Source: Nemertoderma westbladi
Lineage: Eukaryota; Animalia; Xenacoelomorpha
Reading direction: 5' to 3'
DNA length: 61,466 bases
NCBI GenBank assembly: GCA_032718475.1
Contig: JAUCBJ010004596.1
Coordinates: 1-61,466, forward strand
Part shown: positions 3,001-61,466 of the stretch, one piece after another
How the letters are laid out: each line of letters opens with the position of its first letter
Numbering within the stretch: the first letter of the stretch is position 1
Notes under the pieces: model-generated
Told to the model about the DNA's origin: nothing
The model's input: only the letters and a program-made list of their open reading frames with translations
Database searches by the model: none
Program-made: the position numbers and the translations under genes

Positions 3001-5902
3001 ACACAATGGTGTCTCCCTCAATGACAAACTTCTCAAGGGTCCTGATTTTTTAAACAGTCTTCAAGGCTGCCTTCTTAAGTTTAGGAAGAAGCCCATAGCA
3101 ATATCCGGAGATATAACGGCTATGTATCATCAAGTGATGGTGAAGAAAGAAGATCAGGATTTTCTTCGTTTTTTATGGGGAGGCCTTGAACGTCAAGGTC
3201 CTCCAACTGTCTATAAGATGGTTCGTGAATGCTTTGGATGCATCTCTTCAACGTGTTCGTGTATCTATGCACTCAATCGAACTGCATTGGATAATGAACA
3301 GCAGTATCCTGTTGCTTCTAAAAAGGTTCTTTCGCATTTCTATGCAGATAACTATTTTGATTCGTGTGATAGTGAGGAAGAAGCTATAACCCTTGTTAAG
3401 AATATGATTGATTTACTTTCTTTGGGGAGCTTTCCACTAGGACAATGGATGTCTTCATCAAAGAGAGTGCTATCAACTATACCTACTAAGCAGTTAGCAA
3501 ATCCATCAATCGACCTAGATCTTGATGAGCTTCCAATTGAGCGAGCCCTAGGTGTTCGTTGGGATTGTAGTAGAGATACCTTCGTATTCTTTACACAGCT
3601 TAAGGATAAGATTCCGACAAAGAGGAATGTCCTGCGACAGGTGGCATCCATCTTTGATCCACTCGGTGTACTATCTCCCATTCTTTTAACCGCTAAAATC
3701 TTACTTCAGGATTGTTGGCGCCGTGAACTACCTTGGGATGAGAATCTTCATGATGATCTTAAAATTCGTTGGGAGGAATGGTTAAGTGATCTTTCCAACC
3801 TCCATAAGATAGAAATCCCACGTTGCTATTCATCATCTTTTAGTCCTGTAGTCAAATCGCAGCTGCATGTGTTTTCAGATGCGTCTGAAAAGGGGTTTGG
3901 TGCAGTTGCATATTTCCGTACTCTTCATTCCGATGATGCTATTGACATTAGTTTAGTCATGGCGAAATCTAGGAATGCTCCAGTCAAGCCCTTGACTGTA
4001 CCTCGGTTGGAACTGCAAGGCGCCGTCATGGCAACTCGCCTTGCTAGCTTGATTTGTGAGGAATTGTCATTGATAATTTCAGAAGTAATGTTTCATTTAG
4101 ATGCCAAGACTGTCCTTGGGTGGATAACTTCCTTAGCCTGTCGATATCATACCTTTGTAGCCCACAGAGTTGGTGAAATTCTGGATGTAACCACCCCTAG
4201 TCAGTGGAATTTCATACCAGGCGAACTTAATCCAGCAGATTATTGCAGTCGTCCAACTTCAATAGATCAGCTGATTGCTGAAGAGTCTTGGTTTCATGGT
4301 CCATTGTTTCTTTCTTTGCCAGAGAGTGAATGGCCCACCTTTAAATCTAATATCATTGTGCCAACTGTATATGATGTGGAGGTCAAGTCAGTCAACACTC
4401 TTCTTGTAACTGAAGTGGATAACGTTTTCTTAACTTTGATTTCCAAAATATCCGTATTACTACGTCTAAAGAGAATAACCTCCTGGGTATTTCGATTTGT
4501 GAGAAATTGTAAGAAGCGTAAGAGTGAGCGGGTCATTGGCCCCCTTTTGCCAAGAGAATTAAAAAACTCATTGGACTTTCTGATCAAAAGGGTTCAAGAA
4601 GATTCTTACCCCATTGAAGTGTGTAAACTTTCCCTAGGTGTTGCAATCCCAACTGATAGCAGCCTATTGACTCTAACCCCAATTCTTAATGAGTCTGGTT
4701 TGCTTGTCGTAGGTGGTAGGATTAGCAAATCTGATCTCTCCATATCAACTCGGCACCCAGTCATCTTACCTAAAGATGCCCATCTCACCAAGCTTATCAT
4801 TGAGGATGTCCATGATAATGTATTACATGAAGGTGTGGAGCAGACCCTAAATGCCCTCAGGCAATCTTTTTGGGTTCCTTCAGGTAGACTTTATGTGAAG
4901 AAGGTCTTAAATAAGTGCCTCGTCTGTAAGAAACGTCGTGTAAAGCCCGAAACACCACTGATGGCGGCACTGCCACGTCCTCGTCTTTCCCCCATGACTT
5001 ATACATTTGTAAATATTGGAATTGACTACATGGGTCCATTCTACACCAAGTTATTGCGTAGGTCCATGAAGCGTTATGTTCTTCTCACAACATGTCTCGT
5101 AACTCGCGCAGTTCATCTGGAGCTCGCCTATTCATTAGATACTAATTCTTTTCTGATGGCATTCCGTCGCATGATTGCTCGTCGTGGAAACCCATCAATT
5201 GTGTATAGCGATAATGGTTCGAATTTCACTTGTGGTGAAAAGGAACTTCGTCAATCTCTTGACAGTTGGAATCAAGAGGTTATTGTCGATGCATTATCTC
5301 AGAAGGGTATCAAGTGGTATTTCAACCCTCCATCAGGTCCTCACTTTGGAGGAAGTTGGGAACGACCAGTTCAGTCAGCTAAGAAAGCTCTTAAAATTGT
5401 TCTTGGTAATCAATTAGTTTCTGATGAACTCCTTATGACTGTCTTGGCTGAAGTTGAACGTCTTCTCAACAGTCGTCCTTTAACTCATGTCAGCGTGGAT
5501 CCAAATGACCCAGAAGCTCTAACACCTAATCATATACTGTTAGGTCGAGCAAATCCAAACCTCCCTCCTGGAATCTTTGACGACAAAGATATATGTTCTA
5601 AGAGTTTGTGGAAAGCTACTCAAGCCATCACCAGCCAATTCTGGCGGCGATGGATGAGAGAATATGTGCCTTCACTTATTGAACGCAGAGTGTGGCTCCA
5701 TGAGCGCCGCAATCTGAGTGTGAATGATATTGTGCTCGTGATTGAACCGAACACCCCACGTGGACAATGGCCACTAGGCAGAGTAGTAGAAACTTTTTCT
5801 GGTAGTGATGGCATTGTTAGGTCGGTTAAAGTTCGTATGAAAAACAAGGATTACACTCGACCAGCTGTAAAACTATGCTTATTGGAGGAAGCACGTGAAT
5901 AG
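2..5902 (+). CDS. BEL/Pao LTR retrotransposon gag-pol polyprotein (5'-partial; frame open from the window edge)
   Basis: 1887-aa ORF 239-5902, and the same frame has no stop from position 2. Domains in BEL order: DUF1759-like gag (FDGNAAKWPGFISSF), three Zn knuckles (CVACNGKHALMKC, CFACGVPGHSAVDC, CDEEGCFKRHHTLLH), aspartic protease (FLDPGSETS), RT (YLPHHPV, VFDASA, LLKGPD, YADN), RNase H (VFSDAS, PRLELQGA, NPAD), integrase HHCC and DDE (IDYMGP, SDNGSNF, GGSWER), C-terminal DUF5641-like tail. Confidence 0.97.
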   Translation, partial: DVESSRLSVALDEDNTCAAELDDDDFPRSHISNAASSRAGRSQLIGRETTEVTAVPSCNNNRVSFNVTNLNDNNVFSTGMSESNNNSINLSNITSVNISSASVGVGVSSIFTSAPLGTSTRNYCNNFVEPLPHSSTYCSIYNGFSAPFGPNTSLCGERFTNAISPPAPPTTWALHTPPFVPQSVNFPSVNPCSLSMSGLGSMSFPTGFNNGSAVGGSVGSPTVPSIATAPKSPHGQSTIDNWIDSAELSAATLQMSHQTIPQLSTGPYNPWSQVNLEPFDGNAAKWPGFISSFKALYHDTVPSLALKMAILQNSLTEEVRESVSSFLDDPNLYFDALKELRRIYGDTHLVANESSKRLKNLPEVKMGKTHYATLREFSIKLNGAISRLKRCGYTADLFANNNIDDVMAKLPPSFHYEWSKRVLDNRPQQPSLEHLNSWIAIKLERARIAEGSLQAASSNKHNNSERLVQSNQKNVTSTNKNKNQISSKGQITIHTPTIAAIHAPSSGDTLNSNKVENQSVSKTKKKVSTNSTAMGSGKFTPQSSVIETSCVACNGKHALMKCSVFNSMDPEDRGDVIRKHNLCFACGVPGHSAVDCKIKVPCDEEGCFKRHHTLLHNAPRVFTAKNFSSKGYDFIKNSDSDKSNSKHVGTASVSAVAELSKVALQIVPVCVIEQSSGKILNNKFAFLDPGSETSLISSRLAEQLGLKGPNKIVQFGNFQDDGKVGFACESEFAVSHCKGGLQYRIPKAWIVPRINVGRQYFDWPNMKSSWAHLKDLDLPIIDSANVDILLGADVFDVIWPLEFRKGPSGSPIAVRTNFGWTCTSRVPLVPMSDTEQLQVSHIRITPLDTESNLADSEFQLLDSVKRFWTTESFGVRPCKALPIAAEESRAIELLNKNTKCVNNRYVTSLLWAEDNTKLPNNISSAYKRLLSVERRLKREPELATIYESTINGYIEKGFAVKVDSKDLKGPVGKTWYLPHHPVVHPCKPGKVRPVFDASARHNGVSLNDKLLKGPDFLNSLQGCLLKFRKKPIAISGDITAMYHQVMVKKEDQDFLRFLWGGLERQGPPTVYKMVRECFGCISSTCSCIYALNRTALDNEQQYPVASKKVLSHFYADNYFDSCDSEEEAITLVKNMIDLLSLGSFPLGQWMSSSKRVLSTIPTKQLANPSIDLDLDELPIERALGVRWDCSRDTFVFFTQLKDKIPTKRNVLRQVASIFDPLGVLSPILLTAKILLQDCWRRELPWDENLHDDLKIRWEEWLSDLSNLHKIEIPRCYSSSFSPVVKSQLHVFSDASEKGFGAVAYFRTLHSDDAIDISLVMAKSRNAPVKPLTVPRLELQGAVMATRLASLICEELSLIISEVMFHLDAKTVLGWITSLACRYHTFVAHRVGEILDVTTPSQWNFIPGELNPADYCSRPTSIDQLIAEESWFHGPLFLSLPESEWPTFKSNIIVPTVYDVEVKSVNTLLVTEVDNVFLTLISKISVLLRLKRITSWVFRFVRNCKKRKSERVIGPLLPRELKNSLDFLIKRVQEDSYPIEVCKLSLGVAIPTDSSLLTLTPILNESGLLVVGGRISKSDLSISTRHPVILPKDAHLTKLIIEDVHDNVLHEGVEQTLNALRQSFWVPSGRLYVKKVLNKCLVCKKRRVKPETPLMAALPRPRLSPMTYTFVNIGIDYMGPFYTKLLRRSMKRYVLLTTCLVTRAVHLELAYSLDTNSFLMAFRRMIARRGNPSIVYSDNGSNFTCGEKELRQSLDSWNQEVIVDALSQKGIKWYFNPPSGPHFGGSWERPVQSAKKALKIVLGNQLVSDELLMTVLAEVERLLNSRPLTHVSVDPNDPEALTPNHILLGRANPNLPPGIFDDKDICSKSLWKATQAITSQFWRRWMREYVPSLIERRVWLHERRNLSVNDIVLVIEPNTPRGQWPLGRVVETFSGSDGIVRSVKVRMKNKDYTRPAVKLCLLEEARE

Positions 5903-43053: not shown

Positions 43054-43138
43054 AAAATTGTATTTTAGCATCAAATGTAACAAAAAAAAACTAGGTACAG
43101 ATTGCAACAATAGCTTTTTTAAAAAAAAAAATGGGGCA

Positions 43139-43144
43139 TTTAAT
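43139..43144 (-). terminator. Candidate polyadenylation signal (ATTAAA) for the cytokine-receptor-like gene
   Basis: ATTAAA on the minus strand about 270 nt after the TAG, followed by T-rich sequence before the satellite begins. Confidence 0.3.
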
Positions 43145-43410
43145 CCACCCTAATATATACTCCACATCTAATAACAAAATTACCCCTGTAACAGAATGGA
43201 AAGGTGAAAGTTGAAAGTTTAGAATTCGGTAGCTTTAGATAGAAATCGTACATAAATTATACTACCACCATAGAAACGCCGTTAGAGTAAGGCGATGATG
43301 TCCATACTGTTTCAACCAGATCAATAATTTTGGCCGCATATTCCAATGATACTGTAGTAGCCCGCCCTCGCGTCCCATTCCCCACCTCTACCTCGTAGCG
43401 CCCTCCGATT

Positions 43411-43587
43411 CTAGTTGCATTGGTTGCCGGTTGTCACGGTGACGGACTGGCTCCATGCCGACCATAGGTGGTCGTTGTCGTTGTAGTAGTCGTCTGGCTT
43501 ACATTGGATCTTCACGACATATTGGTTGACATCAATGAGATTGGTTATAGCGAAACTTGTGAACCTTCCTGTTTTATATAAAACCTC
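43411..43587 (-). CDS. Terminal coding exon of a class I cytokine-receptor-like gene (second half of the WSxWS FN3 domain)
   Basis: Acceptor CTAAT-TTTATTTTGTCAG| at 43588, phase 0. Translates EVLYKTGRFTSFAITNLIDVNQYVVKIQCKPDDYYNDNDHLWSAWSQSVTVTTGNQCN*. The YxVxIxCKP...WSAWS pattern (WSAWS at 43464-43450) matches the class I cytokine receptor signature. Confidence 0.88.
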   Translation of the reverse strand, partial: EVLYKTGRFTSFAITNLIDVNQYVVKIQCKPDDYYNDNDHLWSAWSQSVTVTTGNQCN

Positions 43588-43841
43588 CTGACAAAATAAA
43601 ATTAGTTTATACTGTAGGCCCTATATATTTTTTTGTATATCTGGTTAAGAATTATAAACTCATGATTTGTTTTCCACTTTGTTGTTTTTCGTTGTCGACA
43701 TTCCACTTGTTTTTTAATAACTTTAAAGAAAATGAAAACTCATTTTCTAAATGAGCTTAGGCCCCTCTCACACGGCTCAACTTGTTTCTACAACTTGTTG
43801 CTGGACTCCTCACACAGAGAAACATGTTTCGGAAACAAGTT

Positions 43842-44696
43842 GCAGCAACACGTTTCTGTGTATGAGGGGGTCCAACAACAAGTTTCTGTCTGTGAGGGGG
43901 TCCAGCAACAAGTTTCTGTGTATGAGGGGGTCCAGCAACAAGTTTCTGTGTATGAGGGGGTCCAGCAACAAGTTTCTGTGTGTGAGGGGGTCCAGCAGCA
44001 AGTTTCTGTGTATGAGGGGGTCAAGCAACAAGTTTCTGTGTATGAGGGGGACCAGCAACAAGTTTCTGTGTATGAGGGGGTCCAGCAACAAGTTTCTGTG
44101 TATGAGGGGGTCCAGCAACAAGTTTCTGTGTATGAGAGGGTCCAGCAACAAGTTTCTGTGTGTGAGGGGGTCTAGCAACAAGTTTCTGTGTATGAGGGGG
44201 ACCAGCAACAAGTTTCTGTGTGTGAGGGGGTCCAGCAACAAGTTTCTGTGTATGAGGGGGTCCAGCAACAAGTTTCTGTGTGTGAGGGGGTCCAGCAACA
44301 AGTTTCTGTGTATGAGGGGGTCCAGCAACAAGTTTCTGTGTATGAGGGGGTCCAGCAACAAGTTTCTGTGTATGAGGGGGTCCAGCAACAAGTTTCTGTG
44401 TGTGAGGGGGTCCAGCAACAAGTTTCTGTGTATGAGGGGGTCCAGCAACAAGTTTCTGTGTGTGAGGGGGTCAGCAACAAGTTTCTGTGTATGAGGGGGT
44501 CCAGCAACAAGTTTCTGTGTATGAGGGGGTCCAGCAACAAGTTTCTGTGTATGAGGGGGTCCAGCAACAAGTTTCTGTGTATGAGGGGGTCCAGCAACAA
44601 GTTTATGTGTGTGAGGGGGTCCAGCAACAAGTTTCTGTGTGTGAGGGGGTCCAGCAGCAAGTTTCTGTGTACGAGGGGGTCCAGCAACAAGTTTCT
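43842..44696. repeat. 30-bp minisatellite (~28 copies), intronic
   Basis: Unit GGGGGTCCAGCAACAAGTTTCTGTGTATGA, highly homogeneous. One inverted copy lies at 43792-43823. Confidence 0.97.
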
Positions 44697-44777
44697 AATA
44701 ATTCCGCTTTTATAATATTATACTTTGTACTGATTTGATATATATTACGTATATAATATATATATTATATTACATGT

Positions 44778-44990
44778 GCATGTATTTGCTTCTCCTGCAA
44801 GCCTTTTATTCTATTTAATAAATACACCATGTTCTGGAACATTTTGCTTATCTCATAAGTAGCTTGGCAACAATGCATTGCCTATATGATAATACTAGTA
44901 TATGAAATATTCCAACATAAGCAAAATGTTCTAGAACATTGTGAATTTATTAAATAGAATAAATGGTGTGCAACGTTTGGAAATACATGC
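44778..44990. mobile_element. Foldback/MITE-like inverted repeat
   Basis: 47-bp arms at 44805-44851 and 44917-44963 are reverse complements with 3 mismatches. An outer GCATGTATTT/AAATACATGC pair flanks them. Confidence 0.6.
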
Positions 44991-45334
44991 AACATTCAAA
45001 TGCCAATAAATCAGCTTTTCCTCAACCAAATTCAAATATTGTTACATATTTGGAATCCTTGCACGGTCAGCTTTCCATTATTATTATTATTATATCGATG
45101 GAGACACTTTTTTTAAACGTTTGTAGCGAAAGATTGAAAGCGAAAATAAAAATTCTGGCTCACCCAGTAAGGAGGAGGTAGATGAAACTAACTCTGTTTC
45201 AAATTTCATGCAATCTTATTAAGATTTGTATAATTTTTTTTTTTTTGGGGGGGGGGGGGGGGGATTTAGGTTAATAAATAATAATAGAAATATAATAGAA
45301 GTCAATCCTCTTGAATTTACCACTGAATGCTAAC

Positions 45335-45483
45335 CTCTGAACTAGTATTGGACATATCCGTCAATTGCAACTGGTACTCTAATGGTATGTCGTCGGTGTA
45401 CCCGATTGGAGGTGCCCATGTAAAAGCAGAGACATTGTTGCCAACAATGAGAACTTGTAAATCATCCGGAGCATGGGTGTAAA
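45335..45483 (-). CDS. Internal exon of the same cytokine-receptor-like gene (first half of the WSxWS FN3 domain)
   Basis: Acceptor TTTTCGTTTCCTATATAG| (phase 1) and donor GAG|GTTAGC (phase 0). Translates xYTHAPDDLQVLIVGNNVSAFTWAPPIGYTDDIPLEYQLQLTDMSNTSSE, with the FN3 P..L.V, W..P and L.Y.L pattern. Splices in frame to 43587. Confidence 0.85.
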
Positions 45484-45899
45484 CTATATAGGAAACGAAA
45501 AGTCATTAATATATATGAAAATTTGTATATTCAAGAACACCACTTTGGTATTATTGGTATTGAAGCTAAGGACTAAAATATAGATTGTAGGGCCTTATCA
45601 CCCCTGGGCAGTAAATGTGCAAGGGACTACTGTACTACACTACACTCGTTACTGGGGACTATGATGGACTCTACTGGACTTTACTGATACTGAACTTTCT
45701 ACTCCCTATCACGTTTGTTTGTTTGTTAGCTTGTACTGCTCTACCGGTACCGTGGATGGCTGACTGATACTAGCTGACTCGTACTAGTACCACATACAGA
45801 GAATACCTGGCATATGTAATCGCTACTACTATATAACGAAACGGCTTCGACCCGCAATATTTTATCAGGTTATCCTTCTCACCCTAAATTTATTTAGTA

Positions 45900-48800
45900 A
45901 TAATATTTATTTAATAACAATTTACTACACTTCTACAAACAATGTAGAATGTAGACGGTGGTTGGACGGGTGGGCCCATTACACCAACCACCGCTAGCAT
46001 TCAGCTACTGCATAAACCAATAGTTACTATAATACAAAGAAATTCTAGATAAAACAGTACAGTCATGCAACATGCAGTACATAAGCTCAATACAAAAACA
46101 AATATCCTACTGTACATTCTGACATTAATATGGGCCTAGTTTAAGTAAGTAGTATTATCGATTGATTTTTAACGGATGAAATACGTAACTATATTTTTAC
46201 TGTAATATAATAGTTAAAAAATAGGTCACAGGCAAGGTCATATTACCTTAGTACTCCAACTTTACTTTAGTACTCCAAATAAATGCATGCACACATACAC
46301 TACCGATAGTATACAATATTGTAACAAGTTTCTAAGATACAAAATCGAGTGCTACAAGCTACACTAAAAAATCCAGGCTGAGGCACGTTTTTGAGATCTA
46401 CGACAAAAAAACTATTACAAATATAAGCGCGCGAATACAGTAGATGTGAGGAGTTACTTAAAGTACAGTAGTTGAGATATATGCACAAAAAAACTATTAC
46501 AAATAAACACGCGAATACAGTAGATGTGAGGAGTTAGTGTATCTGGTTAAATGTAAAATATGTAAACAGTAGTTAATTAAATCATGTAAGCTGCTTTATT
46601 GCTCTTCGGTGAGCAGTTTAGTTACGGCGTTTTTGAATATGTTAATTGATTTTGCGTCCCGTACAGAAGAAAGCAGGGTGTTCCAGACCTCTGGTGCGCG
46701 CACTCTGATTGATTGTCTAGCGATCTCCAGACGGGTGCGTGGTACCGTAAAGTTATTATTTGTTGCTGATCTTGTTCGGTGTTGATGCGTGGTTGATATC
46801 AGTGTGAGTAGAGAAGGGAATATATCTGATGGTAGTAGTTTCTTTATGTAACTATAACTGAGTATTGCAATATGTTTGATGTAAATAGAGCGTATCGTTA
46901 GTGGGGTGAAATTTGTGTTGCCTTTTGATATATAAATTTTCTGTGCTTTCTGTTGCAGCTTGTGTAAAGTTGAAACATTGGTAGTTAGTTTGTCTTCAGG
47001 TTTCCGTCGCTTTCGGCGCCGCCCGTAGTGACAGTGTTTGGTTGAATTTCTATCCATAGTTGTTTTAGTATTTATGTTTTTATATGATTTTATTGCCCAC
47101 ACAGTATTACAGTACCAGTACATTAGGTAGGGATTGATCAACGTATTGTATAATTGTATAACTACAAGTGTTTTTGCGGTGACAAAATTTTTGATCCTAT
47201 TAATTATGCCAATGTTACGACTGATTTTGATACGCAAATAATCACAATGATTTTTCCAGCTGAGGTGTTCAACCATGTTGACGCCAAGAAATTTAATTAC
47301 TTTCTGTCGCTCAATTGTGATTCCATTAATTTTTATTGGTGGTAGTGTGTTTATATTAAGGTGTTTGTTTTGGGTTCGAAAAATGATGACGTTTGTTTTT
47401 TTTATGTTCAGTGATAGTCTGTTCAGTTGGAACCACCGTGTCAATTTGTCCAGCTCATTATTAATATCGGTAATCAGTGAATTTATGTCCACACCCGATT
47501 TAAACAAATTAGTATTGTCGGCGTACAGTATAAATTTAATGAGCTTGGATACGGTAGTTAGATCGTTACAGTAGATTATAAATAAGAGGGGGCTCAATAG
47601 CGACCCTTGTGGCAATCCTATTATAATTGTGGCGAAGTTTGATTTGGCTGTACCTATAGTCACATATTGCACTCGATCTGTAAGGTAGCTAGTAATCCAG
47701 ACAAGGGCAACATCAGTGATCCCATAGCGTTGTAATTTTTGTATCAGGATTTGGTGGTTTACTGTGTCGTCGAAGGCTTCATTTGGCTGGGAACTGAGCC
47801 AGTAGATAGTGAAATATTAATAATGTGAACCAGAGGTTCCGCGATGAGTGTGATTAGTTGGATGAATACCGGATGCTGCCAGGTCGTCATATCCAGGACT
47901 GGTTCTCTTGTTAAGCGAGTTTGCTGTGTATAGAATGTCTTGTGGCGTTATTGTGTTAAACATTTTAAGTTTTACTGTCGGTTCAGTTCTGGGTATGTAA
48001 TCGAGAGGAGAACCGTTTGTGGTTGGTATTTCCTTATCTAGTTTTTGACCTATGTTAATGTAATTGTCATTGAAGGCATTTGCAATTTTTATTGGATCAG
48101 TGTATATTCGTTGGTTGTAAGTTACCAATGTGGGAGAGGGTAATTTGGGCTTCTTACGTATCAGTTGATTGATGTGACCCATACTGATCGGGCATTTTGT
48201 TTCTTGAAGTCAAGTACCATACTGTAATATGTCTTCTTTGCGGTTCTTAGTAAGCTATTCAGTGCATTTCGGTAGTGTCTGAATGATGCCTGTTTATCAG
48301 GGGTTGGGTCCTTGGTGTAGTTTCCATACAGTCGGTCGCGTTTCTTCATCGCTCTAAGCAGGGATTCAGTCAAGCATGGTTTTTCCCCATTACGTATTTT
48401 TACTTGTTCAAGTGGGAAGTGTGTATTGTAGTGGTGCTGGTAAGTATGTAAGAAAGTATCGTATGCGTTGTCTGCCGTAGTTTGTTTGTATACTTCATTC
48501 CAGTTTGTTAATTGCAAGCTGTTTGTGAAAGCCTCTTGTTTTTTTTGTGATGTAGTTTTCGGCGATACATGTATTGATGTTTCGGTTTCTGACTTGTTAT
48601 TATATTTTGTAAGCGTGAAGATTGGAATGCCAGTATCGTATGCGTTGTCTGCCGTAGTTTGTTTGTATACTTCATTCCAGTTTGTTAATTGCAAGCTGTT
48701 TGTGAAAGCCTCTTGTTTTTTTTGTGATGTAGTTTTCGGCGATACATGTATTGATGTTTCGGTTTCTGACTTGTTATTATATTTTGTAAGCGTGAAGATT

Positions 48801-49915
48801 GGAATGTGGTCTGAAATCGGAGAGATCAGTAAACCAGATGTTAGTTTCGATGTAGAGTTAGAGAATATGTTATCGATTAGCGTTGCGGAGTGGTGTGTGA
48901 TTCGAGTTGGTTTAGAGATAGTGTGAATGTAATTGTAGGTTGTCATGAAGTTAAAAAGTCGGCACTAACCGGGCTAATATTTGTTTTTAACAAGTCGATG
49001 TTAAAATCACCAAGTAAAAAACAAGGTTTACTTTCGTTATTAATTTTTTCCATAGAAGGTTGTAGGGAAGAAAATGTATCCTGCACAGCGGTATTAGGAG
49101 GCCGGTAGATTGCCCCAATAATTATATTTTTACTTTTCATTTGTGGGATTTCAAGGAAAAGTGTTTCTACTGGAGTTGGGGGTTTACAATGTAAGTCTTT
49201 GCGCTGAAATGCTGGGAGGTCAGTGTGTACATATATGGCAACGTCACCCCCACTTTTGTCTATTCGCGGATGTGAAAATGTTTTATAGTTTGGTAGTGAA
49301 AACTGCGAGTGATCAGTGTCGTGCAGCCAGGTTTTTGAGATACAGTAGCAATCACAGAACTGCCTCGCCAGGCCATATACCCCTGCAGCCAAGTATATGG
49401 GTCCGTAATCCAGGACCAAGGGCGTCCTTATCCCAGAACGAAGGGGGTCCTACTGTAGTTACTTGTTAGTTGTTTTCAGACTGGATAGTAGACTTTCAAT
49501 TTTATCGAAATTGGCAGACAAACTACGAGCGTTGAAATGAATAAGGGACAGCTGTGGGGAAAGATGGCCAAATTTTAAATTGAAATCTTCAGGAAAGTTA
49601 TAAGTACAGTTACGTAAGTGTGCAGTGTCAGTGGGAATGTGGACGTCGGGGTTAAAGTTCGTGTCAAACTCCGTGTCCTTAGTCGATGTGGGGTCTGTTA
49701 AGTTGTACTTGTTGAAATACTGCGTGTCTAAGTAGTAATATCTATGTAGCCTGGGATACGGAAGTCTCTTGCTGTGAGTGTAAATTCGTTGTCATCAATA
49801 ATATGCTTAAAGGGTAGCGACTCAGATAGACAGGTGGGGCAGAACCAGTTTGAGTTTGAGTTTTGGAAGTTAGTGTAGTCTTTTTGGGAGAGGGTCAGCG
49901 AGATACATTTTGCAT
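45900..49915 (-). mobile_element. Decayed, 5'-truncated CR1-group LINE (PHD remnant-APE-RT, long 3' UTR)
   Basis: Fragments: AKC...WFCPTCLSESLPF (PHD C-half), LIHFNARSL, ISKTWL, GAIYRPP, LLGDFNIDL, TLIDNIF, SDHIPI (APE), and GLPQGSLLSPLLFIIY, YADN, KFLGV (RT). Multiple frameshifts, a deletion in RT near 47778, and a 3' end with hairpins and AATAAA. Confidence 0.92.
48455..48806. repeat. Internal tandem duplication in the LINE (period 177 bp, in frame)
   Basis: 48455-48629 is repeated at 48632-48806 with a 2-nt spacer. Visible as a doubled 59-aa peptide in ORF 48161-48946. Confidence 0.93.
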
Positions 49916-50102
49916 TTATTATAGGAAGGGATCTTGGGGGTCTTAGCCTCGAATGATAAGTTTATTTTACCGAAAATAACTTATCTTTTATTGGCGCAAT
50001 TGTAGGACTAATCCCATCACATGCGTACTTTTTAACCAGGTAGTGTACAAATTTAGGAATCGCGTAATTTTTTCTTGAAATTAATATCTCATATCTCTCC
50101 AA

Positions 50103-50145
50103 ACCACGTATGCGTTTCGACCTTACTGGGTCTCATCAGCGTGGT
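50103..50145 (-). ncRNA. Type I minimal hammerhead ribozyme, copy 1 (stem III variant GAAACGCAUA)
   Basis: ACCACG-CUGAUGA-GACC-CAGUAA-GGUC-GAA-AC-GC-AU-A-CGUGGU. The G16.2>A change breaks the stem III palindrome. Confidence 0.75.
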
Positions 50146-50208
50146 GTCGGATTCGAACCTGGGACCTCGAGGTGGAAGCCGAGACTACAACCACTAGGCC
50201 ACAGGTTC
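50142..50208 (-). promoter_or_regulatory. tRNA-derived Pol III internal promoter (present in every unit; copy 1 shown)
   Basis: A box TGGCCTAGTGG (50201-50191) and B box GGTTCGAATCC (50159-50149) at tRNA-like spacing, ending in ACCA. The stems are degenerate, so this is not a functional tRNA. Confidence 0.8.
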
Positions 50209-50531
50209 TTGAGATATGGAGTATTAATTTCAAAGCCAGCTGCCATTTTTTTTTTTTTTTTTTTTTTAAGCCCCTAATTTTTTATTATTGATAGTAACAA
50301 TGTGTTGGCAAGCTGTATTTTTCGAGGTGTTTGTTATTATACATTTATTATAGGAAGGGATCTTGGGGGTCTTAGCCTCGAATGATAAGTTTATTTTACC
50401 GAAAATAACTTATCTTTTATTGGCGCAATTGTAGGACTAATCCCATCACATGCGTACTTTTTAACCAGGTAGTGTACAAATTTAGGAATCGCGTAATTTT
50501 TTCTTGAAATTAATATCTCATATCTCTCCAA

Positions 50532-50574
50532 ACCACGTACGCGTTTCGACCTTACTGGGTCTCATCAACGTGGT
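50532..50574 (-). ncRNA. Type I minimal hammerhead ribozyme, copy 2 (core variant UUGAUGA)
   Basis: Same fold, but with C3>U in the catalytic core. Confidence 0.75.
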
Positions 50575-50670
50575 GTCGGATTCGAACCTGGGACCTCGAG
50601 GTGGAAGCCGAGACTACAACCACTAGGCCACAGGTTCTTGAGATATGGAGTATTAATTTCAAAGCCAGCT

Positions 50671-50701
<31 letters not shown>

Positions 50702-50964
50702 AGCCCCTGATTTTTTATTATTGATAGTAACAATGTGTTGGCAAGCTGTATTTTTCGAGGTGTTTGTTATTATACATTTATTATAGGAAGGGATCTTGGG
50801 GGTCTTAGCCTCGAATGATAAGTTTATTTTACTGAAAATAACTTATCTTTTATTGGCGCAATTGTTGGACTAATCCCATCACATGCGTACTTTTTAACCA
50901 GGTAGTGTACAAATTTAGGAATCGCGTAATTTTTTCTTGAAATTAATATCTCATATCTCTCCAA

Positions 50965-51007
50965 ACCACGTACGCGTTTCGACCTTACTGGGTCTCATCA
51001 GCGTGGT
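50965..51007 (-). ncRNA. Type I minimal hammerhead ribozyme, copy 3 (intact)
   Basis: ACCACG-CUGAUGA-GACC-CAGUAA-GGUC-GAA-AC-GC-GU-A-CGUGGU. Full conserved core, 6-bp stem I, 4-bp stem II, palindromic ACGCGU stem III, GUA cleavage triplet. Confidence 0.92.
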
Positions 51008-51101
51008 GTCGGATTCGAACCTGGGACCTCGAGGTGGAAGCCGAGACTACAACCACTAGACCACAGGTTCTTGAGATATGGAGTATTAATTTCAAAGCCA
51101 G

Positions 51102-51143
<42 letters not shown>

Positions 51144-51404
51144 CCCCTGATTTTTTATTATTGATAGTAACAATGTGTTGGCAAGCTGTATTTTTCGAGG
51201 TGTTTGTTATTATACATTTATTATAGGAAGGGATCTTGGGGGTCTTAGCCTCGAATGATAAGTTTATTTTACCGAAAATAACTTATCTTTTATTGGCGCA
51301 ATTGTAGGACTAATCCCATCATATGCGTACTTTTTAACTAGGTAGTGTACAAATTTAGGAATCGCGTAATTTTTTCTTGAAATTAATATCTCATATCTCT
51401 CCAA

Positions 51405-51447
51405 ACCACGTACGCGTTTCGACCTTACTGGGTCTCATCAGCGTGGT
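51405..51447 (-). ncRNA. Type I minimal hammerhead ribozyme, copy 4 (intact)
   Basis: Identical to copy 3. Confidence 0.92.
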
Positions 51448-51543
51448 GTCGGATTCTAACCTGGGACCTCGAGGTGGAAGCCGAGACTACAACCACTAGG
51501 CCACAGGTTCTTGAGATATGGAGTATTAATTTCAAAGCCAGCT

Positions 51544-51579
<36 letters not shown>

Positions 51580-52267
51580 CCCCTGATTTTTTATTATTGA
51601 TAGTAACAATGTGTTGGCAAGCTGTATTTTTCGAGGTGTTTGTTATTATACATTTATTATAGGAAGGGATCTTGGGGGTGGAAGTGGAAGTGGAAGTGGA
51701 CCTCGAAGTGGAAGCCGATACTACAACCACAAGGCCACAGGTTCTTGAGATATGGAGTATTCATTTAATAGCTAGGAGTTTTTGTGGAAAAATATGTAAA
51801 TTATTTAATTAGTAATTAGATTTAAAGTTTTCTAATCGATTTTTCTCGAAAAGTATTTGGTTTTTCTCATAGCAACGGCATTTTTTTTGTTCATCTCGGT
51901 ACGATCTGTACGATTGGTACGTAGCCAGTGATTGGTCGAAATTTTAAAACCCTATATCTCGAGATCTATTAACTTTGGAGCGTCGAATAAAAGCTTAAAA
52001 TATTTATAGGTCCATCCCCATCATGCTGCCGACGACGCTATCGCGGTCGAACCACCAGTTAAAGAGTTCTGTGCTGTGATTGGTCGATTTTCAAGACTCC
52101 ATATCTCGAGATCCATTCACTTTGGTCTTGGTGCGGCGAATAAAAGATTAAAATGTTTTCTGGAGCGATCTCAGCCCGTTAGTGAAGGTCCCAGTGATGT
52201 TGCAATAACGGTTCCGGAGTTATGGTCATTTCTGTTTGGTCTAATTTAAAATCACAATAAATACGCT

Positions 52268-55200
52268 GGAACGAGGTTTGTCGAACCCGCTGCCGCTACC
52301 ATCGGAATGAGGTTGGACAAACCTGCTATGGTCGGAATGAGGTTGGTGTTGGACGAACCCGCTATGGTTGGAACGACGTTTTACGAACCCACTACAGTCG
52401 GAACGAGGTTTGACGAATCCGATATGGTCGGAACAAGGTTTGACAAACCCGCTACGGTCAGAACAAGGTTTGACAAATCCGGTATGGTTGGAACGAGGTT
52501 TGATGAACCCGCTACAGCCGGAGCGAGGTTTGACAAACCTGCTACGACTGTACAGTTGGAATGAGGTTGGACGAACCCGATACGGCCAGAACAACGTTTT
52601 AAGAACCCGCTATGGTCGGAACGAGGTTTGACGAACCCGATACAGTCGGAACGAGGTTTGACGAACCCACTATGGTCATAACAAGGTTTGACGAACCCGC
52701 TATGGTCGCGTTCAGAACGAGGTTTGATGAACCCGCCATGGTCGGAACGAGGTTTGATGAACCCGATATGGTTGGAATGAGGTTTGATGAACCCGCTATG
52801 GTTGGAATGACGTTTTAATAACCCGCTACAGTCAAACTAGGTCTGATGTACCTGATACGGTCAGGACGACGTTTGACGAACCCGATATGGTCGAACCAGC
52901 TACGGTCGCGGTCGGAACGAGGTTTAATTAACCGGCTATGGTCAGAACGAGGTTTGAAGAACCCACTATGGTCGGATCGGAACGAGGTTTGATGAACCTG
53001 ATACAGTCGGAACAAGGTTTGTTGAACCTGCTACCATCGTGGTCGGAACGAGGTTTGACGAACCCACTATGGTCGCGTTCAGAAAGAGGTTTGACGAACC
53101 TGCTACGGTCGCAGTCGGCACTAGGTTTGATGAACCCGCTATGGTCGCGTTCAGATCAAGGTTTGACGAACCCACTATGGTCGCATTCAGAACGAAGTTT
53201 GATGAACCTGCTATGGTCAGAACGAGGTTTGATGAACCCGATATGGTTGGAACAAGGTTTGACGAACCCGGTACAGTTGCGTTCAGAACGAGGTTTGACG
53301 AACCCGCTATGGTCGGAATGAGTTTTGACGAACCCGATACAGTCGAAAAGAGGTTTGATGAACCTGCTATGGTCGGAACGACGTTTTAATAACCCGCTAC
53401 GGTCGGAATGAGGTTTGACGTACCCAATATGGTCGGAACGAGGTTTGTCGAACCCGCTATGGTCGCAGTCGGAACGAGGTTTGACGAACCCGATACGGTC
53501 GGAACGAGGTTTGACGAACCCGATACGGTCGGAACAAGGTTTGACGAACCCGCTATGGTCATAACAAGGTTTGACGAACCCGCTACGGTCGCATTCAGAA
53601 CGAGGTTTTATGAACCTGCTATGGTCGGAACGAGGTTTGACAAATCCGATACGGTCAGAATGAGGTTTGACGAACCCGCTATGGTCGGAACGACGTTTTA
53701 ATACCCCTCTATGGTTGGAACTAGGTTTGACGTACCCGATACGGTCGGGACAAGGTTTGATGAACCCAATACGGTCGGAACAAGGTTTGTTGAACCCGCT
53801 ACAGTCGTGGTCGGAACGAGGTTTGACGAACCCGCTATGGTCAGAACGACGTTTTAATAACCCGCTACGGTCGGAATGAGATTTGACGTACCCGATACAG
53901 TCGGAACGAGGTTTGTCGAACCCGCTATGGTCGCGGTTGGAACGAGGTTTGACGAACCCGCTACAGTCGCGTTCTGAACGAGGTTTGACGAACCCACTAC
54001 GGTCGGAACGACGTTTTAATAACCTGCTATGGTCGGAACGAGGTTTGACGTACCCAATACAGTCGGAACAAGGTTTGTTGAACCAGCTACGGTCACGGTC
54101 AGAATGAGGTTTGACGAACCCGCTACGGTCGCGTTCAGAACGAGGTTTGATGAACCCGCTATGGTCAGAATGATGTTTTAATAACCCGCTATGGTCGGAA
54201 CGAGGTTTGAAATATCCGATACGGTCAGATTTGACGAACCCGCTATGGTTGAAACGACGTTTTAATATCCCGCTATGGTCGGAACTAGGTTTGATGTACC
54301 CGATATAGTCGGGACGAGGTTTGACGAACCTGATACGGTCGGAACAAGGTTTGTTGAACCTGCTACAGTCGCCGTTGGAACGAGGTTTGACGAACCCGCT
54401 ATGGTCAGAACGAGGTTTGAAGAACCCGCTACGGTCGGAACGGAACGAGGTTTGATGGACCTGATACAGTCGGAATGAGGTTTGTCAAACCCACTACCAT
54501 TGTGGTTTGAACGAGGTTTGACGAACCCACTATGGTCGCGTTCAGAACGAGGTTTGACAAACCCGCTACAGTCACGGTCGGAACGAGGTTTGATGAACCC
54601 GCATGGTCACGTTCAGAACGAGGTTTGACAAACCCGCTACAGTCGCATTCAGAACGAGGTTTGATGAACTCACTATGGTTGGAACAAGGTTTGATGAACC
54701 CGATACAGTCGGAACGAGGTTTGACAATCCCACTATGGTCGGAATGACGTTTTAATAACCCGCTATGGTCGGAACAAGGTTTGATGTACCTGATACGGTT
54801 GGAACAAGGTTTGTCGAACCTTCTACAGTCGTGGTCAGAGCGACGTTTGACGAACCCGCTACGGTCACGTTCAGAACGAGGCTTGACAAACCTGCTGCTA
54901 TGGTCGGAACGAGGTTTGACGTATCCGATATGGTTGGAGCAAGGTTTGTCGAACCTGCTATGGTCGTGGTCAGAACGAGGTATGACAAACCCGCTACGGT
55001 CGCATTCAGAATGATGTTTGACGAACCAGCTACGGTCGTGTTCACAACGAGGTTTGACGAACGCGCTATGGTCAGAACGAGGTTTGACGAACCCTTCTAT
55101 GGTCAGAACGAGGTTTGTCGAACCGATACGGTCGGAACAAGGTTTGACGAACCCGCAATGGTTCCGTTCAGAACGAGGTTTGACGAACCCGCTATGGTCA

Positions 55201-55365
55201 GAACGACGTTTTAATAACCTGCTACAGTCGAAACGATGTTTGACGTACCCGATACAGTCGGAACAAGGTTTGTCGAACCCGCTATGGTCGCAGTCGGAAT
55301 GAGGTTTGACGAACCCAATACAGTCCGAACGAGGTAGGACGAACTCGCCAGAGTCGAAACGAGTT
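52268..55365. repeat. Divergent 30/36-bp minisatellite (~3.1 kb)
   Basis: Unit GGTCGGAACGAGGTTTGACGAACCCGCTAT, with 6-bp insertion variants (GGTCGCGTTCAGAACG) and recurrent CGACGTTTTAATAACC variants. Confidence 0.95.
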
Positions 55366-55481
55366 TGGCATAATGAAACAAAAGAAATTTCAATTGGTTT
55401 AATGTATGTGGTAATTTAAATTTTCAAAGATTTTTGAGTAATTTATTGTTACTGGTATATAATTATTGTTCATTTAATTTT

Positions 55482-55708
55482 GTGTGTAAATGCTACGCCG
55501 ACAACCACTGCCAACAACGGGAACTATGAAAATGTAATGTGACTGAGTGACCTGTGACCTGAGTTCGTGACTCTCGTTTATTGTTTTGGTTAGAATAATT
55601 TTCCACTGTAAAGTAAAGTAAAGTAAAAAAAAAACCCGATCATTTCTCTCAATTGATAATTAACATTAATTAGTTTTAACAATGGTTGTCGGCGTAGCGT
55701 TTACACCC
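55482..55708. mobile_element. MITE with 9-bp TSD (Mutator-like)
   Basis: TIRs GTGTGTAAATGCTACGCCGACAACCA and TGGTTGTCGGCGTAGCGTTTACACCC. Perfect TTTAATTTT direct repeat at 55473-55481 and 55709-55717. Confidence 0.85.
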
Positions 55709-55810
55709 TTTAATTTTGCAGTTGTGTATATTACAACAGGGCGATTTCCATTCATTTGAATTTGTTTTAATTTAATTTTTAATAATGTTATAAAACAGTT
55801 TTAAATAATG

Positions 55811-56005
55811 CAAAGTGGCAAATGCCAAGCCGTTATCCAACTACCACAGCTGAATATGGAACTGAAACCGGTGTTCATGACTCTCGTTTATTGTTTTGGT
55901 TAAAATTATCTTCCGCTGTAACCTGTTCCTTTACATTCATTTATAATTAACATTAATTAGTGCTAATAATGGTTGTTGATTGACGGCCTAGCATTTACAC
56001 CTTTG
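55811..56005. mobile_element. Second, more diverged relative of the same MITE
   Basis: Shares TGACTCTCGTTTATTGTTTTGGTTA and ATAATTAACATTAATTAG with the first copy. Its ends are imperfect inverted repeats. Confidence 0.65.
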
Positions 56006-56247
56006 TAACGCCATTTGTATTTAAGTAATAGCGATTTCTTGGACGATGCTACACATTATTTCGTAATTTCTTACAATTTTGTATAAAATATCATATATTA
56101 TAATACTCTTACATTGTATGCTGCTGTGTATTTGTTAGCAGGGATGGCATAACGAAACGAAAAGCTCGAAAGAAATTTCAATTTCGTTGCATGTATGTAG
56201 TAATTTACTATCAGTATTGCCTTATTAGAAGTGCCTTACAGTATTAT

Positions 56248-57008
56248 TGTGGGACGGGCAGCCGGGCACTAAGCTATTGCATTACAATGGTACCGGTACC
56301 AGTACCCGATGGGGGTGATAATTTTCCCATTATATTTATATATGATTAAATTTATTGTGATGGGATCAGAGATCCCGACCGGGTAAATTGATATATGCGT
56401 CACCGTTGGCTCTGAGATGGTACTAATAGCTTGGCCGAGGCCGTTGGAGAAAAGCGATCAGAGTTTGATGTTGTTTCTTAATGTTATAATATATGATAGC
56501 AATAATATATGACAGAGATAATAGTATATGATTGATACCGGTAATAGTATATGATGACAGCCGATGACGATGACGGTGAATAATTGTTACCAGTCTGCAC
56601 TAAAACTGAGTAACTAACTAACTGATCTAAGAATCTGACATAATATATGACTGATACACTAATATTGCTTCACCTCCTACTCTACCTTGGCCTGCTACCT
56701 AATGGATGCTCTCCTGTTCCCTATCACGTGCTTCCCTCCCCCCTATTGGCTAATATGCTACTTCTCACCCTGGCACTCTCTGGGAGTGTTTCCCCTCTGC
56801 TGCTAGCCTCTACTAGCTGTGTTCTCTCCGAGGTGGTTTGACCTCTAACCTTCCTTTCTATGTGGCTTAGGGGCTTGTGTCGCCCCCCCCCCCAAATGTT
56901 GGTTATGATACGAGATTAATATTGCTAATCTCGTATCTCCAACATATTGCTAAAATGCCACCATCCCATTTTCTGGTGGGTAATGAAGTGGAATTGAATC
57001 CACTTACA
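56248..57008 (-). repeat. Possible 3' LTR of the second BEL-derived element
   Basis: Minus-strand PPT-like GGGAGGGAG (57017-57009) directly followed by TGTAAG, with AATAAA at 56356-56351. The distal end is a guess. Confidence 0.35.
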
Positions 57009-57416
57009 CTCCCTCCCATGCTATCTTCCCGGTGAGAAGATAGCATCAACCTCAAGTGCGCTTCAATTCCGCTGGAACCCGATCTACTATCGGGTGTGGG
57101 GTGGAGTTCTTTTCTCGGGGTCGGCTTTCCAGGCTGCCCCCCTGGGTATGATGTTGCTACCCCTCCTTGGTGCAATCGTGAGCTATGTTGCACCAATGTA
57201 TCTGACGTCTCTGTTCGAGACAATTGTGGACTCTCTTTTCACACAATTTTAAAAAACTTTCACTCTGAACTCATTCTAACCTCACTCTCGGACCCTTCTG
57301 TCCCTTACTCTCTCTCTCTCTCTGCTCGCTCCCCACACTTGAATTGCACTCCTCTCACTTCCTCATGCGCCAACACCTCCTCTCCATACTTCCCTTGTAC
57401 TCCTCTCATACTCCTC

Positions 57417-58372
57417 TCGGAACTTACCCCAGCCCATCGGCTTGTGGCAGACAAGCCTCATGAGCTGGCCCATCGCCACTGCTCCACAATTTCCTGTGCC
57501 CGCTCAGTGCTCCCTCCGGAACTTGCCCCAGTCCATCGGCTTGTGGCAGACAAGGCCCATGAGCTGGCCCATCCCCACTGCTCCACAATGTCCTGTGTTC
57601 TCTACCACTCCCAAAGTGCCAATTTTCCTTAGTCTTACCCCTGTCTGCGCTATCATCCTATCTACCTTGCTACTTACTTCTTACCCTGTACCCTACTACT
57701 ACTATACTATGCCTACATAGTCTTTACTTTCTTACTACAAGGCGCTCTCGGTGCCCACAACTTCTAACTTCTATGGTACTATGTACCCTAATACTGCTAA
57801 TACCTACATACCACACCCTTCACAACCCCTCTGCTACTACCTCTATGGTATACCTACATACCATACCCTCACTCTCTTTCTACGTGGCGCTTTCGGTGCC
57901 CACAACCCTTCTGTCACTACTTCTATGGTATACCTACATACCATACCCTCTACCCTCTTTCTAGGTGGCGCTTTCGGTGCCCACAACCTCTAACTCTCTC
58001 GTTACTATGTACCCTGCTACTCTCGTGGTACGCCAATGTACCACACTCCCTAACTTCTGCCTACTTCGAACGGTACTATGTACCCTCCTACTCCCGTGGT
58101 ATGTTTATATACCATACTCCCTATCTTCTGCCTACTTCTAACAGTACTATGTACCCTCCTACTCCCGTGGTATGTTTATATACCACACTCCCTATCTTCT
58201 GCCTACTTCTAACTCTCCTCTTACTCTTACTAACTTCTACTAACTTTCTAACTTCTTACTCACTTCTACTAACTTTCTAACTTCTTACTAACTTCTACTA
58301 ACTTCTAACTAGTGCTACCTACTATCTAACTATCTACTACTATTACTTTCTAACTTTCTACTTATTTTATTA
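57417..58372. repeat. Cluster of short imperfect tandem duplications in the 3' non-coding part of the second BEL element
   Basis: 99-bp-period duplication (57417-57590), GGCGCT(T/C)TCGGTGCCCACAAC x3, ~65-bp units x3 (58005-58210), and an ACTAACTTTCTAACTTCT low-complexity tract. Confidence 0.75.
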
Positions 58373-58773
58373 TTATTTATATTTTATTTATGTGTGAGAA
58401 GGGCGTCTCGCCCTCATTCCCACCCCCCTCAGTCCAACATATTGGACGACTAAACTTCAAGGGCGATTCTTCCAGCAGGCACACTCCCACTGCCCCCTTG
58501 TAGGTCCTCTTATCCTTCGCCCCAGTCTCCTTGTTAATTCCAACTCTCTAGGAATTGCTTCTCCCTCCTCCACCACCCTAAAATCGGGTCTTTCGGTCGC
58601 CTTCTTGATTTCTTCATGGTCCCCTGGCAGCAAAATGCCACCATTCATCTTGTCATCACCTGGCGGTAGAATGAAAAGAAATCGAAAGAATAGATAGAAC
58701 ACAATCGATAATACCAATCCTATCCCTTTCCACCCTGTCTTCTTATTTGACCTTCCCCTTTTTGGTATGCCTC

Positions 58774-61466
58774 TCAACCGGACCGGCATCTCCTCCGGAC
58801 ACTTCTCCGGACATCTCGCCGTCCACTCTTCTCCATCCTCATACCGATACTTGCCAGGAACATCCTTGTTCCATTCGTCTCTAAGTCTTCCGCGTCGAAT
58901 CCATTCTCCTCCGCCCACTCTCTTGCTGTTACTTCCCCTCCTAACTTATCTACCGACTGTATTTCTCTGGAACTATCCTCTATCCTTTCACCACACTCCA
59001 CTATGCGTGGTTCCAGATCCATACCCAACTCCTGGTATCCTTCCCCAGGCCGCTTCTCACATGGGACCTCCCCATCGCCCATCTCTGGTTTCTCCTCTAC
59101 GTCATCAACGGTGCCTGATAGCATGCACCCTGATGTCTCCGACACCCTGAATGGAATCTTGGTTTTAATTGGACCGAAAAGTGTCCATCCGAACGGCGTG
59201 AGAATCGCCGTTGGATCCCACTGCTTATTCTCTCCGAATATGGTCCTTACTCTCTTGTGGGCCGTTGGACAATCCATTCCGACTATGATGGATACCTTAG
59301 AGACATCCACTTTCGGTATTGAGAAATCGATATCGTCCAGGAATCGGTATTGCTCGACCTCGATCTTAGTTGGTCGCCTGGCATTTATGTTGATCGATTC
59401 TATTATCTGAATGGTGTTGATGGTCACCCCATAGTCACATCCCGGTGCTATTGCTGATATCTCGCACTGTCCCGTCGTCATCTCCAGGACCTCATCCTTA
59501 CTCGATATAGCAGTTACTGCCATCCTACTCGGCCTCGTCTGTAATCCTATCTCATCGGCCACCCAATTCTCCACCAGCGTGAAGGCTGCTCCGCTGTCGA
59601 CCAGCATCAGTGTCGTGACTGATCGACCGCCCTCTCCTGTTATCCTCACTGGTACTACCCCGAGTAGTACTTTCCTCTTTCTTCTTGCTCCTGTCGTGCT
59701 CGTAGCCATTGTTTGGCCTCCAGTCTCGTCATATTCTGTCGGTGTTTCTCTACACTCTCCGAATTTGTGTCCCTCTACCACGCATCGGTGACATAGTCCG
59801 TTCGTATCCGCGTAGGCTACCCGATCTTGTATAGGCAATGCTTGCCAATGCTTACAACTCATGGTCTTATGGGTTCCATCCCTATGCAATTGACATTCGT
59901 ATCCTGGATTGTAGCGCTCCCTGTATAGACCTTCACATATAGCGCTTAGATTCATATCTACCGGTTTAGTGTTTTGGTTATTTGGACTCGGCCTACTGGG
60001 TATGTTGGTGTTATATTTGTTCGCGTTGTTATTTTGTTTCTGTCCCTGCCACGGTGTGGCCTTACTTCCAGCTAACTGTGGACTAGCAGTCCCCTGCGTG
60101 GCCGCATGTGGTAGCGACTGTCTCACTCTCAGGAATGGATCTGCCGGACTGTGTTCAGGTTTAGGCCTGTTGTATTTGGTCTTCGGTGCCTTCCCCAAAC
60201 TATCCCCACTGTAGACTGGGTCTGTAATCAACTCTGCTTCATAGTTGAGGAAGTTTGACATTTCCTCTAGGCCCGGTTCTGCACCTTTCTTCTCCCGGGT
60301 GGAGAAGGCGATCTTCCTCCACTTGTTCTGTAGCCAGATCGGCAGTGCCTGCGTATCGTGGTGATGTTATTCGATGCATTGAGTTTGTATGGCGCGTCTA
60401 GCATCTTCAGCACGATTAACGCCTTCTCGACCTTATTTGCAAAGGTCTTCATACAAACAGGGTTATTCTGTAGGCCATCCGATGTTATTCCCCTCAGGGT
60501 CTGCCGGATGATCTTGGCAGGGTGTCCATATTCCCTGTCTAGGGCCCACCATGCAGTCATGAAGCCACCCTCGATGCCCTGATACTGCCTCATGATGTTG
60601 TACGCTGGGCCTCCCGTGTACACTTGTAATTATTTTAGGCACTCTGCCTGCGTCAGGTTTTTAGTTAGTATTTCATTGCTGTACATGGGTCGGAATTGCA
60701 GGTATTCTTCCGGTCTGCTTCCGTCGAATTTGAATGCCTCAACTGGTGGTAGCTCAATCCTGGTCTTGAGCGCATCAATAAGTGTTGCCATTCCCATCGT
60801 CTGTGCTTCCAATGGGTTCGAGGGATGCTGTACAGACTCTCCTGTTGGGTGCTGTCCGCCCGTCGGGCCTGTTGATTTCTTCTGTGTCGGATATATCATT
60901 GGGGGTAACGGCCCCCTCCATATCTCCGTGTCGCACGATCTGTTCTGGTCCAGGGGGTTCGATGTTCTTGTTCTCGGTTGAGTGTATTGCTGATATTGCA
61001 ATGGGGGAATGTCACCCTGTCCCCCCCCCACCAGTGTTATGTTTGGTACTGGGGTTGATGTTAATATATTGGGGCCCATGCATCTATCGGCAATAACTCC
61101 CCCCTCCCCTGGGTATATGTTATATCCCTGCATATTATAGTATACTGGTGTGCAGGTACCGGTATAGGCCTATCCACTTCCTGCCTACCTACCGGTATGT
61201 ATGCCGTGACTTCCGGATCTAATCCTATTGTTCGCGCTACCCTATCACCTACACTATCTCTTCCAGTATGGCCTATAGTATGTGCAGTAAGGCCTACAGT
61301 ATGTCCTGCAGTCTGCCTGTGTCCTTCCGGACCGAAGTTTAATCTTCTCGAATATTCCAAGAAGGCCTCCCCACGACCACCATACTCTCGATCGGAGCTA
61401 TATCCCGTCGGGAGATTTCTCTTCGATCCCCTCTCCTGTTCTCGTCCTCGTATCGGTATGTTCTGT
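58774..61466 (-). pseudogene. Disrupted BEL/Pao gag-protease (no RT/RNase H/integrase seen)
   Basis: DUF1759-like FKFDGSRPEEYLQF and AWWALDREYG, knuckles CQLHRDGTHKTMSC and CHRCVVEGHKFGEC, protease LVDSGAAFTLV, and TPFGWTLFGP. In-frame stop at 60630-60632 and frame changes near 60300 and 61100. Confidence 0.85.

Follow-up and report, generated by a model that had tools for sequence, protein, structure and literature searches.

Organization of the locus

The window, i.e., the whole stretch of 61,466 nucleotides that was analyzed, contains on its minus strand two exons, here called A and B, that together encode one FN3 domain with the motif WSAWS near its end. The region upstream of them (45484-61466) is occupied by tandem arrays, a LINE, and what remains of a gag-protease region, and downstream of exon B lie a 48-bp satellite and then a Pao element on the opposite strand. 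The central features are listed below, the motif and the tail cysteine having been located in the sequence.

45335..45483, minus strand: exon A, which encodes strands A-C, the first half of the FN3 domain, together with two sequons (NVS and NTS); phase 1 at its start and phase 0 at its end
43588..45334, minus strand: phase-0 GT-AG intron of 1747 nt with two repeats inside, a high-copy one near 43760-43840 and a tandem array of 30-bp units at 43843-44696
43411..43587, minus strand: coding part of exon B, second half of the FN3 domain with CKP, an acidic/aromatic loop, WSAWS, a 12-residue tail with a cysteine, and the stop codon TAG
43450..43464, minus strand: WSAWS (WSXWS signature), residue 91 of the joined peptide
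43417..43419, minus strand: Cys106 in the tail

Exon A comprises 149 nt and exon B 177 nt including the TAG, with AG / GT at the intron ends. When the two are joined, one of the three frames is open, and its 107 complete codons, together with an initial codon that is split, correspond to an FN3 domain of 108 residues. The joined peptide carries both sequons, Cys78 within CKP, the WSAWS motif, and, ahead of the TAG, 12 further residues including Cys106; since its maximum hydropathy over 19 residues is 1.0, it has no membrane segment. In a preliminary description of this DNA, two exons absent from the ORF track had been proposed to splice in frame into a complete FN3 domain of ~108 aa with CKP...WSAWS and two sequons, followed by a stop 12 codons past the motif and without a transmembrane segment, all of which is found in the single open frame and agrees with the splice junction described below. 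The tail cysteine is probably available for a disulfide with another chain.

In the six frames of the window, W[SG]xWS occurs once, as the WSAWS of exon B. Because WSxWS arises by chance at a rate of 0.08 per resampled 19-kb non-satellite set, the motif by itself is modest evidence of family membership, suggestive and not decisive. It also fits the WxxW consensus of C-mannosylation.

Splicing of exons A and B

Eight sequencing runs were considered, five of which contain the stretch and none of which is recorded as RNA; four were mapped on positions 43060-43840. In run X5, two contigs of 60 nt match positions 43546-43589 and then continue for 16 letters, unique in the window, at 45337, i.e., at the end of exon A. 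A two-letter overlap places the junction exactly at 45335>43587, which is the junction that had been put forward as an RNA check of the gene model. Exons A and B are spliced together, as documented by one run (X5) of one sample, in which the two junction contigs have depths of 2652 and 3.2. Despite its guessed label "DNA?", X5 behaves as a transcript library, because the high-copy repeat beside exon B has a depth of 31-68 in X5 versus 60,000-115,000 in the DNA run X1, whose single-copy depth is 13.5. One contig each of X1 and X2, both of which may be the source of the window, spans 43060-43840 without a difference, TAG included. Contigs of X4 and X5 are absent over the stop, the 3' UTR, the intron, and most of exon B, X4 giving no cover of the exon at all, an absence that is uninformative owing to a record filter.

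Beyond the acceptor at 45483, in the upstream direction, the frame of exon A closes at once, and a further exon on that side is therefore needed; this acceptor and its phase 1 are deduced from the sequence only. Between 45484 and 61466 there was no candidate for a signal-peptide exon, and no four-cysteine segment of the form C-x(7-13)-C-x-W was found in these 16 kb, the only matches to that pattern lying in the 30-bp array of the intron. A scan for exons with a phase-1 end gave 37 candidates, none of them receptor-like and all located within transposon or tandem-repeat DNA. The remaining 5' part of the gene is probably located outside the window, past 61466. An alternative frame of exon A that resembles a signal peptide stops within the exon and was taken as a chance resemblance.

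With 5' exons not found in the window and transposons filling both flanks, the locus might be regarded as what is left of a broken receptor gene, still transcribed but without a stable product. We attach hardly any probability to this explanation in view of a frame that is open over both exons, an exact splice, an intact motif, and a spliced form at high depth.

Relationship to class I cytokine receptors

A search of exon B against solved structures (PDB) returned 27 sequences at E values of up to 10, 19 of which are class I cytokine receptors (8 prolactin receptor, 6 gp130, 3 IL-13Ra1, 1 IL-3R beta, and 1 CRLF1), while the other 8 are unrelated and a generic FN3 protein was not among the 27. 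The best match was the prolactin receptor (E 2.5e-4), and gp130 (E 0.26-0.98) and CRLF1 (E 1.1) scored lower. When exon B was cut before WSAWS, all eight remaining matches were prolactin receptor (E 0.058-0.23), with the qualification that the eight prolactin-receptor matches are near-identical sequences and the E values modest. The resemblance to the prolactin receptor that had been noticed for the motif thus persists, weakly, without it. In the second FN3 domain of the prolactin receptor (PDB 2lfg, 1f6f, and 1bp3), the strand E-F region, CKPD, and WSAWS align with exon B. The relationship is nevertheless distant at this E value: exon B is six residues longer before the motif, strand F, at the place of the Trp-Arg ladder, reads K-x-Q-x-K instead of Q-x-R-x-K, so that the conserved arginine is replaced by Gln, and a stop follows after 12 residues in place of a membrane segment.

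The 1-2-1-0-1 pattern of intron phases is used for class I receptors, and phase 1 followed by phase 0 had been advanced in the preliminary description as a match to it. Phase 0 between exons A and B is confirmed by the X5 junction and phase 1 before exon A is predicted, but the pattern does not single out class I and makes a weak argument, since 1-2-1-0-1 is also printed for class II receptors (PMC8863823; 10.64898/2026.05.30.728932). For class I, a gp130-like splice structure is described as largely conserved (PMC1963337).

Other searches were less specific. The sole PDB match of exon A was tenascin (E 0.96), neither exon singly matched a Pfam fn3 or receptor family, and the first Atlas match was fn3 for both (exon B, 0.92; exon A, 0.91), with only generic fn3 and DSCAM-type clusters. 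The predicted fold of exon B alone was unreliable, with a pLDDT of 41.6. Homologues of exon B were found neither among 10 candidates in longer proteins nor among proteins of similar length, and none of 589 pattern matches in metagenome contigs qualified. Exon B gave four matches among 1.84 billion representatives, three of them weak scores summed over internal repeats and the fourth a small protein with three FN3 repeats; with this fourth protein, the joined peptide performed no better than exon B alone. No close relative of the protein was found in these searches.

A rival reading is an FN3 protein, secreted or of the matrix, in which the terminal domain ends in WSxWS by chance and which would lack a four-cysteine partner domain and bind no cytokine. 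The generic fn3 matches in Atlas, the weak match of exon A to tenascin, the lack of a four-cysteine exon in the 16 kb upstream, and a contig depth in X5 that would be high for a signalling receptor, as far as such a poor measure can indicate, are in line with it, and CRLF3 is described as having WSXWS without the cysteine motif (PMC1963337). We consider a generic protein of this kind unlikely, if worth keeping in mind, given that none of the 27 PDB matches of exon B was generic FN3, that the match to the prolactin receptor survives removal of the motif, and that the intron position fits the receptor pattern, as in the prolactin receptor. CRLF3 itself was rejected as an identification, because a SPRY-like domain should come after its WSXWS FN3 domain (PMC12026705) and the frame here stops after the FN3 domain.

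Class I cytokine receptors are characterized by the WSXWS motif and a defining four-cysteine domain (PMC1963337), the latter being the first FN3 domain with the pattern CX(9-10)CXW-X(26-32)-C-X(10-15)-C. The motif, which should close the second FN3 domain, is present as WSAWS at 43464-43450, and in sequence comparison, at modest E values, the FN3 domain is closer to receptors than to generic FN3. The transmembrane segment and Box1 tail of a membrane receptor were not found within the window, the stop following 12 residues past the motif. The domain encoded by exons A and B is probably, not provably, the second domain of class I type and hence a member of the family.

The 3' end of the gene

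Two further features bear on the question of how the transcript ends.

43426..43427, minus strand: weak phase-1 GC site (score 1.0), located where a receptor exon normally ends
43125..43410, minus strand: likely 3' UTR, in which ATTAAA occurs once (43144-43139)

A scan of the sequence between WSAWS and the TAG revealed no phase-1 GT donor; of the three GT sites present there, one is in phase 2 and two are in phase 0, with scores of -3.9 to -9.6. Phase-1 GC sites past the motif score -1.7, 1.0, and 1.4 and the GT donor in use 1.9, in a simple matrix of base frequencies without a penalty for GC sites. For a membrane isoform, if there is one, the GC site at 43427 would be the candidate donor in the best position. 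The 12-residue tail has a GC content of 0.56, versus 0.26-0.35 in the introns, and the idea that it represents read-through of a former intron is disfavored because a GC-rich tail is unlike them. As for the likely 3' UTR, 0.42 ATTAAA hexamers are expected in it by chance. The share of 78 sampled words was 0.58 in X4 and 0.45 in X5, and the predicted shares are 0.58 for an exon reaching ~43125, at most 0.24 for an exit before the TAG, and 0.51 for an exon with retained intron. These values fit a 3' UTR reaching ~43125 as a weak hint, since the words are unplaced, X4 may be the DNA of another individual, and a retained intron fits as well.

The GC site at 43427 lends itself to a different reading, in which the gene encodes an ordinary membrane receptor (PRLR/gp130/Domeless-like), the TAG form is a soluble isoform, and the alternative donor leads to membrane and cytoplasmic exons past the 36.6-kb satellite and the end of the window. 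The site is in phase 1 and situated right at the domain end, and introns here are large and repeat-filled; moreover, alternative splicing is described as the origin of the soluble GH-binding protein, and next to amphioxus GHRl a separate membrane/cytoplasmic gene model is reported (PMC9010856). We nonetheless judge a membrane receptor rather improbable, considering that the site is weak, without a G at +5, and that the word shares of X4 and X5 exceed, as a weak hint, the maximum predicted for an exit before the TAG. No credible membrane exon was found downstream of exon B within the window, and two hydrophobic stretches that were tried as such are antisense to the Pao polyprotein.

Independently of these considerations, the 60 bases past the TAG (43351-43410) are unusually GC-rich (0.63), and another frame is open for ~58 codons across the stop.

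A candidate secreted receptor-like chain

We hold with moderate confidence that exons A and B form the 3' end of a gene for a secreted chain that resembles class I receptors and would bind a cytokine. The splice junction in X5, the match to the prolactin receptor, the lack of a phase-1 GT site, the exon-like tail, and the precedent in amphioxus count for such a chain. Against it count the weak GC sites (1.0 and 1.4), whose scores come near the 1.9 of the donor in use, the fact that exon A matches only tenascin and Atlas only generic fn3, the replacement of the strand-F Arg by Gln, the modest E values, the restriction of the junction to a single run, and the 16 kb upstream, where neither a signal-peptide exon nor one for a four-cysteine segment was detected.

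In the proposed mechanism, the signal peptide and a first domain with four cysteines would be encoded by exons past 61466, and the product would be N-glycosylated and secreted, binding a helical cytokine in the extracellular space. The tryptophans of WSAWS may stack between Lys/Gln side chains of the neighboring strand F, as the stacking of the WSXWS tryptophans on this strand is described as a feature of the family (PMC7378365). The acidic, tyrosine-bearing loop before the motif, which in the alignment is six residues longer than that of the prolactin receptor, might form part of the ligand site. Without a membrane anchor and a JAK-binding tail, the chain would not signal alone; it would instead carry, buffer, or present the ligand to a gp130/Domeless-type membrane receptor. 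This role is modelled on the GH-binding protein, the soluble IL-6R, and amphioxus GHRl.

Anchorless chains of comparable extent are known from vertebrates, as CRLF1, EBI3, IL-12 p40, the soluble IL-6R, and the GH-binding protein end in or soon after the WSXWS domain. The soluble IL-6R is described as an anchorless chain ending at this domain (PMC7378365), and the class I chains of group 3 as soluble or short (PMC1963337). By description, the precedent in an invertebrate is amphioxus GHRl / GH/PRLlBP / PRLR-like (KJ735509, cited in PMC9010856), a likewise class I-like protein consisting of an ectodomain only. It is reported to be similar to both GHR and PRLR and to bind a GH-like ligand (PMC9010856; PMC5376476), and a single PRLR-like receptor with extracellular sequence only is given for amphioxus (PMC12284397). 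OXCT1, LEPROT, and OSBPL9 are described as neighbors of the amphioxus gene (PMC9010856; PMC12284397). The class I domain is also present in the gp130/Domeless-like receptors of Ciona, sea urchin, acorn worm, molluscs, and Drosophila, and gp130 is among the matches of exon B; these receptors, however, continue past WSXWS with more FN3 domains, a membrane segment, and a tail, whereas exon B stops. Membrane IL6R/gp130-like receptors are described from molluscs, echinoderms, hemichordates, and tunicates (PMC13203501; PMC1963337), and most invertebrates are stated to have one membrane gp130/Domeless-like receptor, the ligand of which is not known (PMC13203501).

More specifically, the chain might be the receptor-like subunit of a composite cytokine of the IL-12 p40, EBI3, or CRLF1 type, secreted together with a four-helix chain and possibly disulfide-linked to it via Cys106. 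It ends soon after WSXWS, its tail cysteine could, judging from the FN3 fold, not easily pair with the buried Cys78, and CRLF1, alone among the vertebrate soluble chains, is one of the PDB matches (E 1.1). We regard such a subunit as highly improbable nevertheless: p40 and EBI3 are absent from the 27 PDB matches, no partner cytokine is known here, the oldest p40 and EBI3 traced in PMC12162339 are those of jawed fishes, and CRLF is reported to appear first in cyclostomes (PMC13203501). Improbable, too, is the combination of a non-chordate invertebrate host with an abundant secreted class I chain that travels with a four-helix cytokine through a disulfide of the tail cysteine. If it were true, composites of the IL-12/CRLF1 type would predate the chordates and the protein would be a bait for the missing ligand of invertebrate JAK/STAT receptors.

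The secreted class I receptor-like chain favored here belongs to a kind of protein that is already known from vertebrates and amphioxus. The claim that it would be notable in an invertebrate or early-branching chordate has to be lowered accordingly, because an ectodomain-only PRLR/GHR-like protein has been described in amphioxus. In a lancelet or a fish, the gene would be a common, merely unannotated representative of the family. A soluble class I chain from a non-chordate invertebrate was not found in the literature searched, which misses most subscription journals. A secreted WSXWS chain without a close database relative would widen the receptor repertoire of invertebrates and bears on a question raised for amphioxus GHRl, i.e., whether early receptors consisted of a soluble binding chain and a separate signalling chain (PMC9010856). 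A soluble chain would also be a practical bait for ligand discovery.

Repeats and mobile elements around the gene

On the plus strand, positions 2-5902 contain an uninterrupted Pao (Bel/Pao) frame of 1966 residues, open at the start of the window, with DUF1759, zinc knuckle, reverse transcriptase, Peptidase_A17, and integrase domains; the element is likely a young copy. The 36.6-kb satellite (6441-43053) has a 48-bp unit and a strong strand skew and starts ~90 bases past a candidate poly(A) signal, and steps in its composition near 16 kb and 32 kb suggest sub-blocks.

Upstream of the gene, the minus strand carries at 46596-49950 a broken LINE in which endonuclease and reverse-transcriptase domains are present, along with an exact internal duplication of 177 bp (48455-48806). 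A search with its protein gave 182 matches, the best being 37-40% identical over the full length, and an animal was named in none of the 120 matches listed. The introns and the LINE and Pao elements nevertheless point to an animal host, and the shortage of close relatives together with a retrozyme-like array suggests, as a hint, an invertebrate. A degenerate 30-bp minisatellite of about 96 copies occupies 52302-55367, with long open frames on both strands and no sign of a coding function, and the broken gag-protease region of an LTR element, recognized by an aspartyl protease match, lies at 58774-61169 on the minus strand.

A 440-bp tandem array of about four copies is found at 49913-51679 on the minus strand. 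Each unit contains a type I hammerhead core with helices I and II paired and a minimal helix III, the cores starting near 51446, 51006, 50573, and 50144; one copy has an altered core base and one an altered helix III. Rfam HH9 matches three of the four copies below the gathering score (E 0.006-0.03), and the array fits the non-LTR retrozymes as described in PMC7229834.
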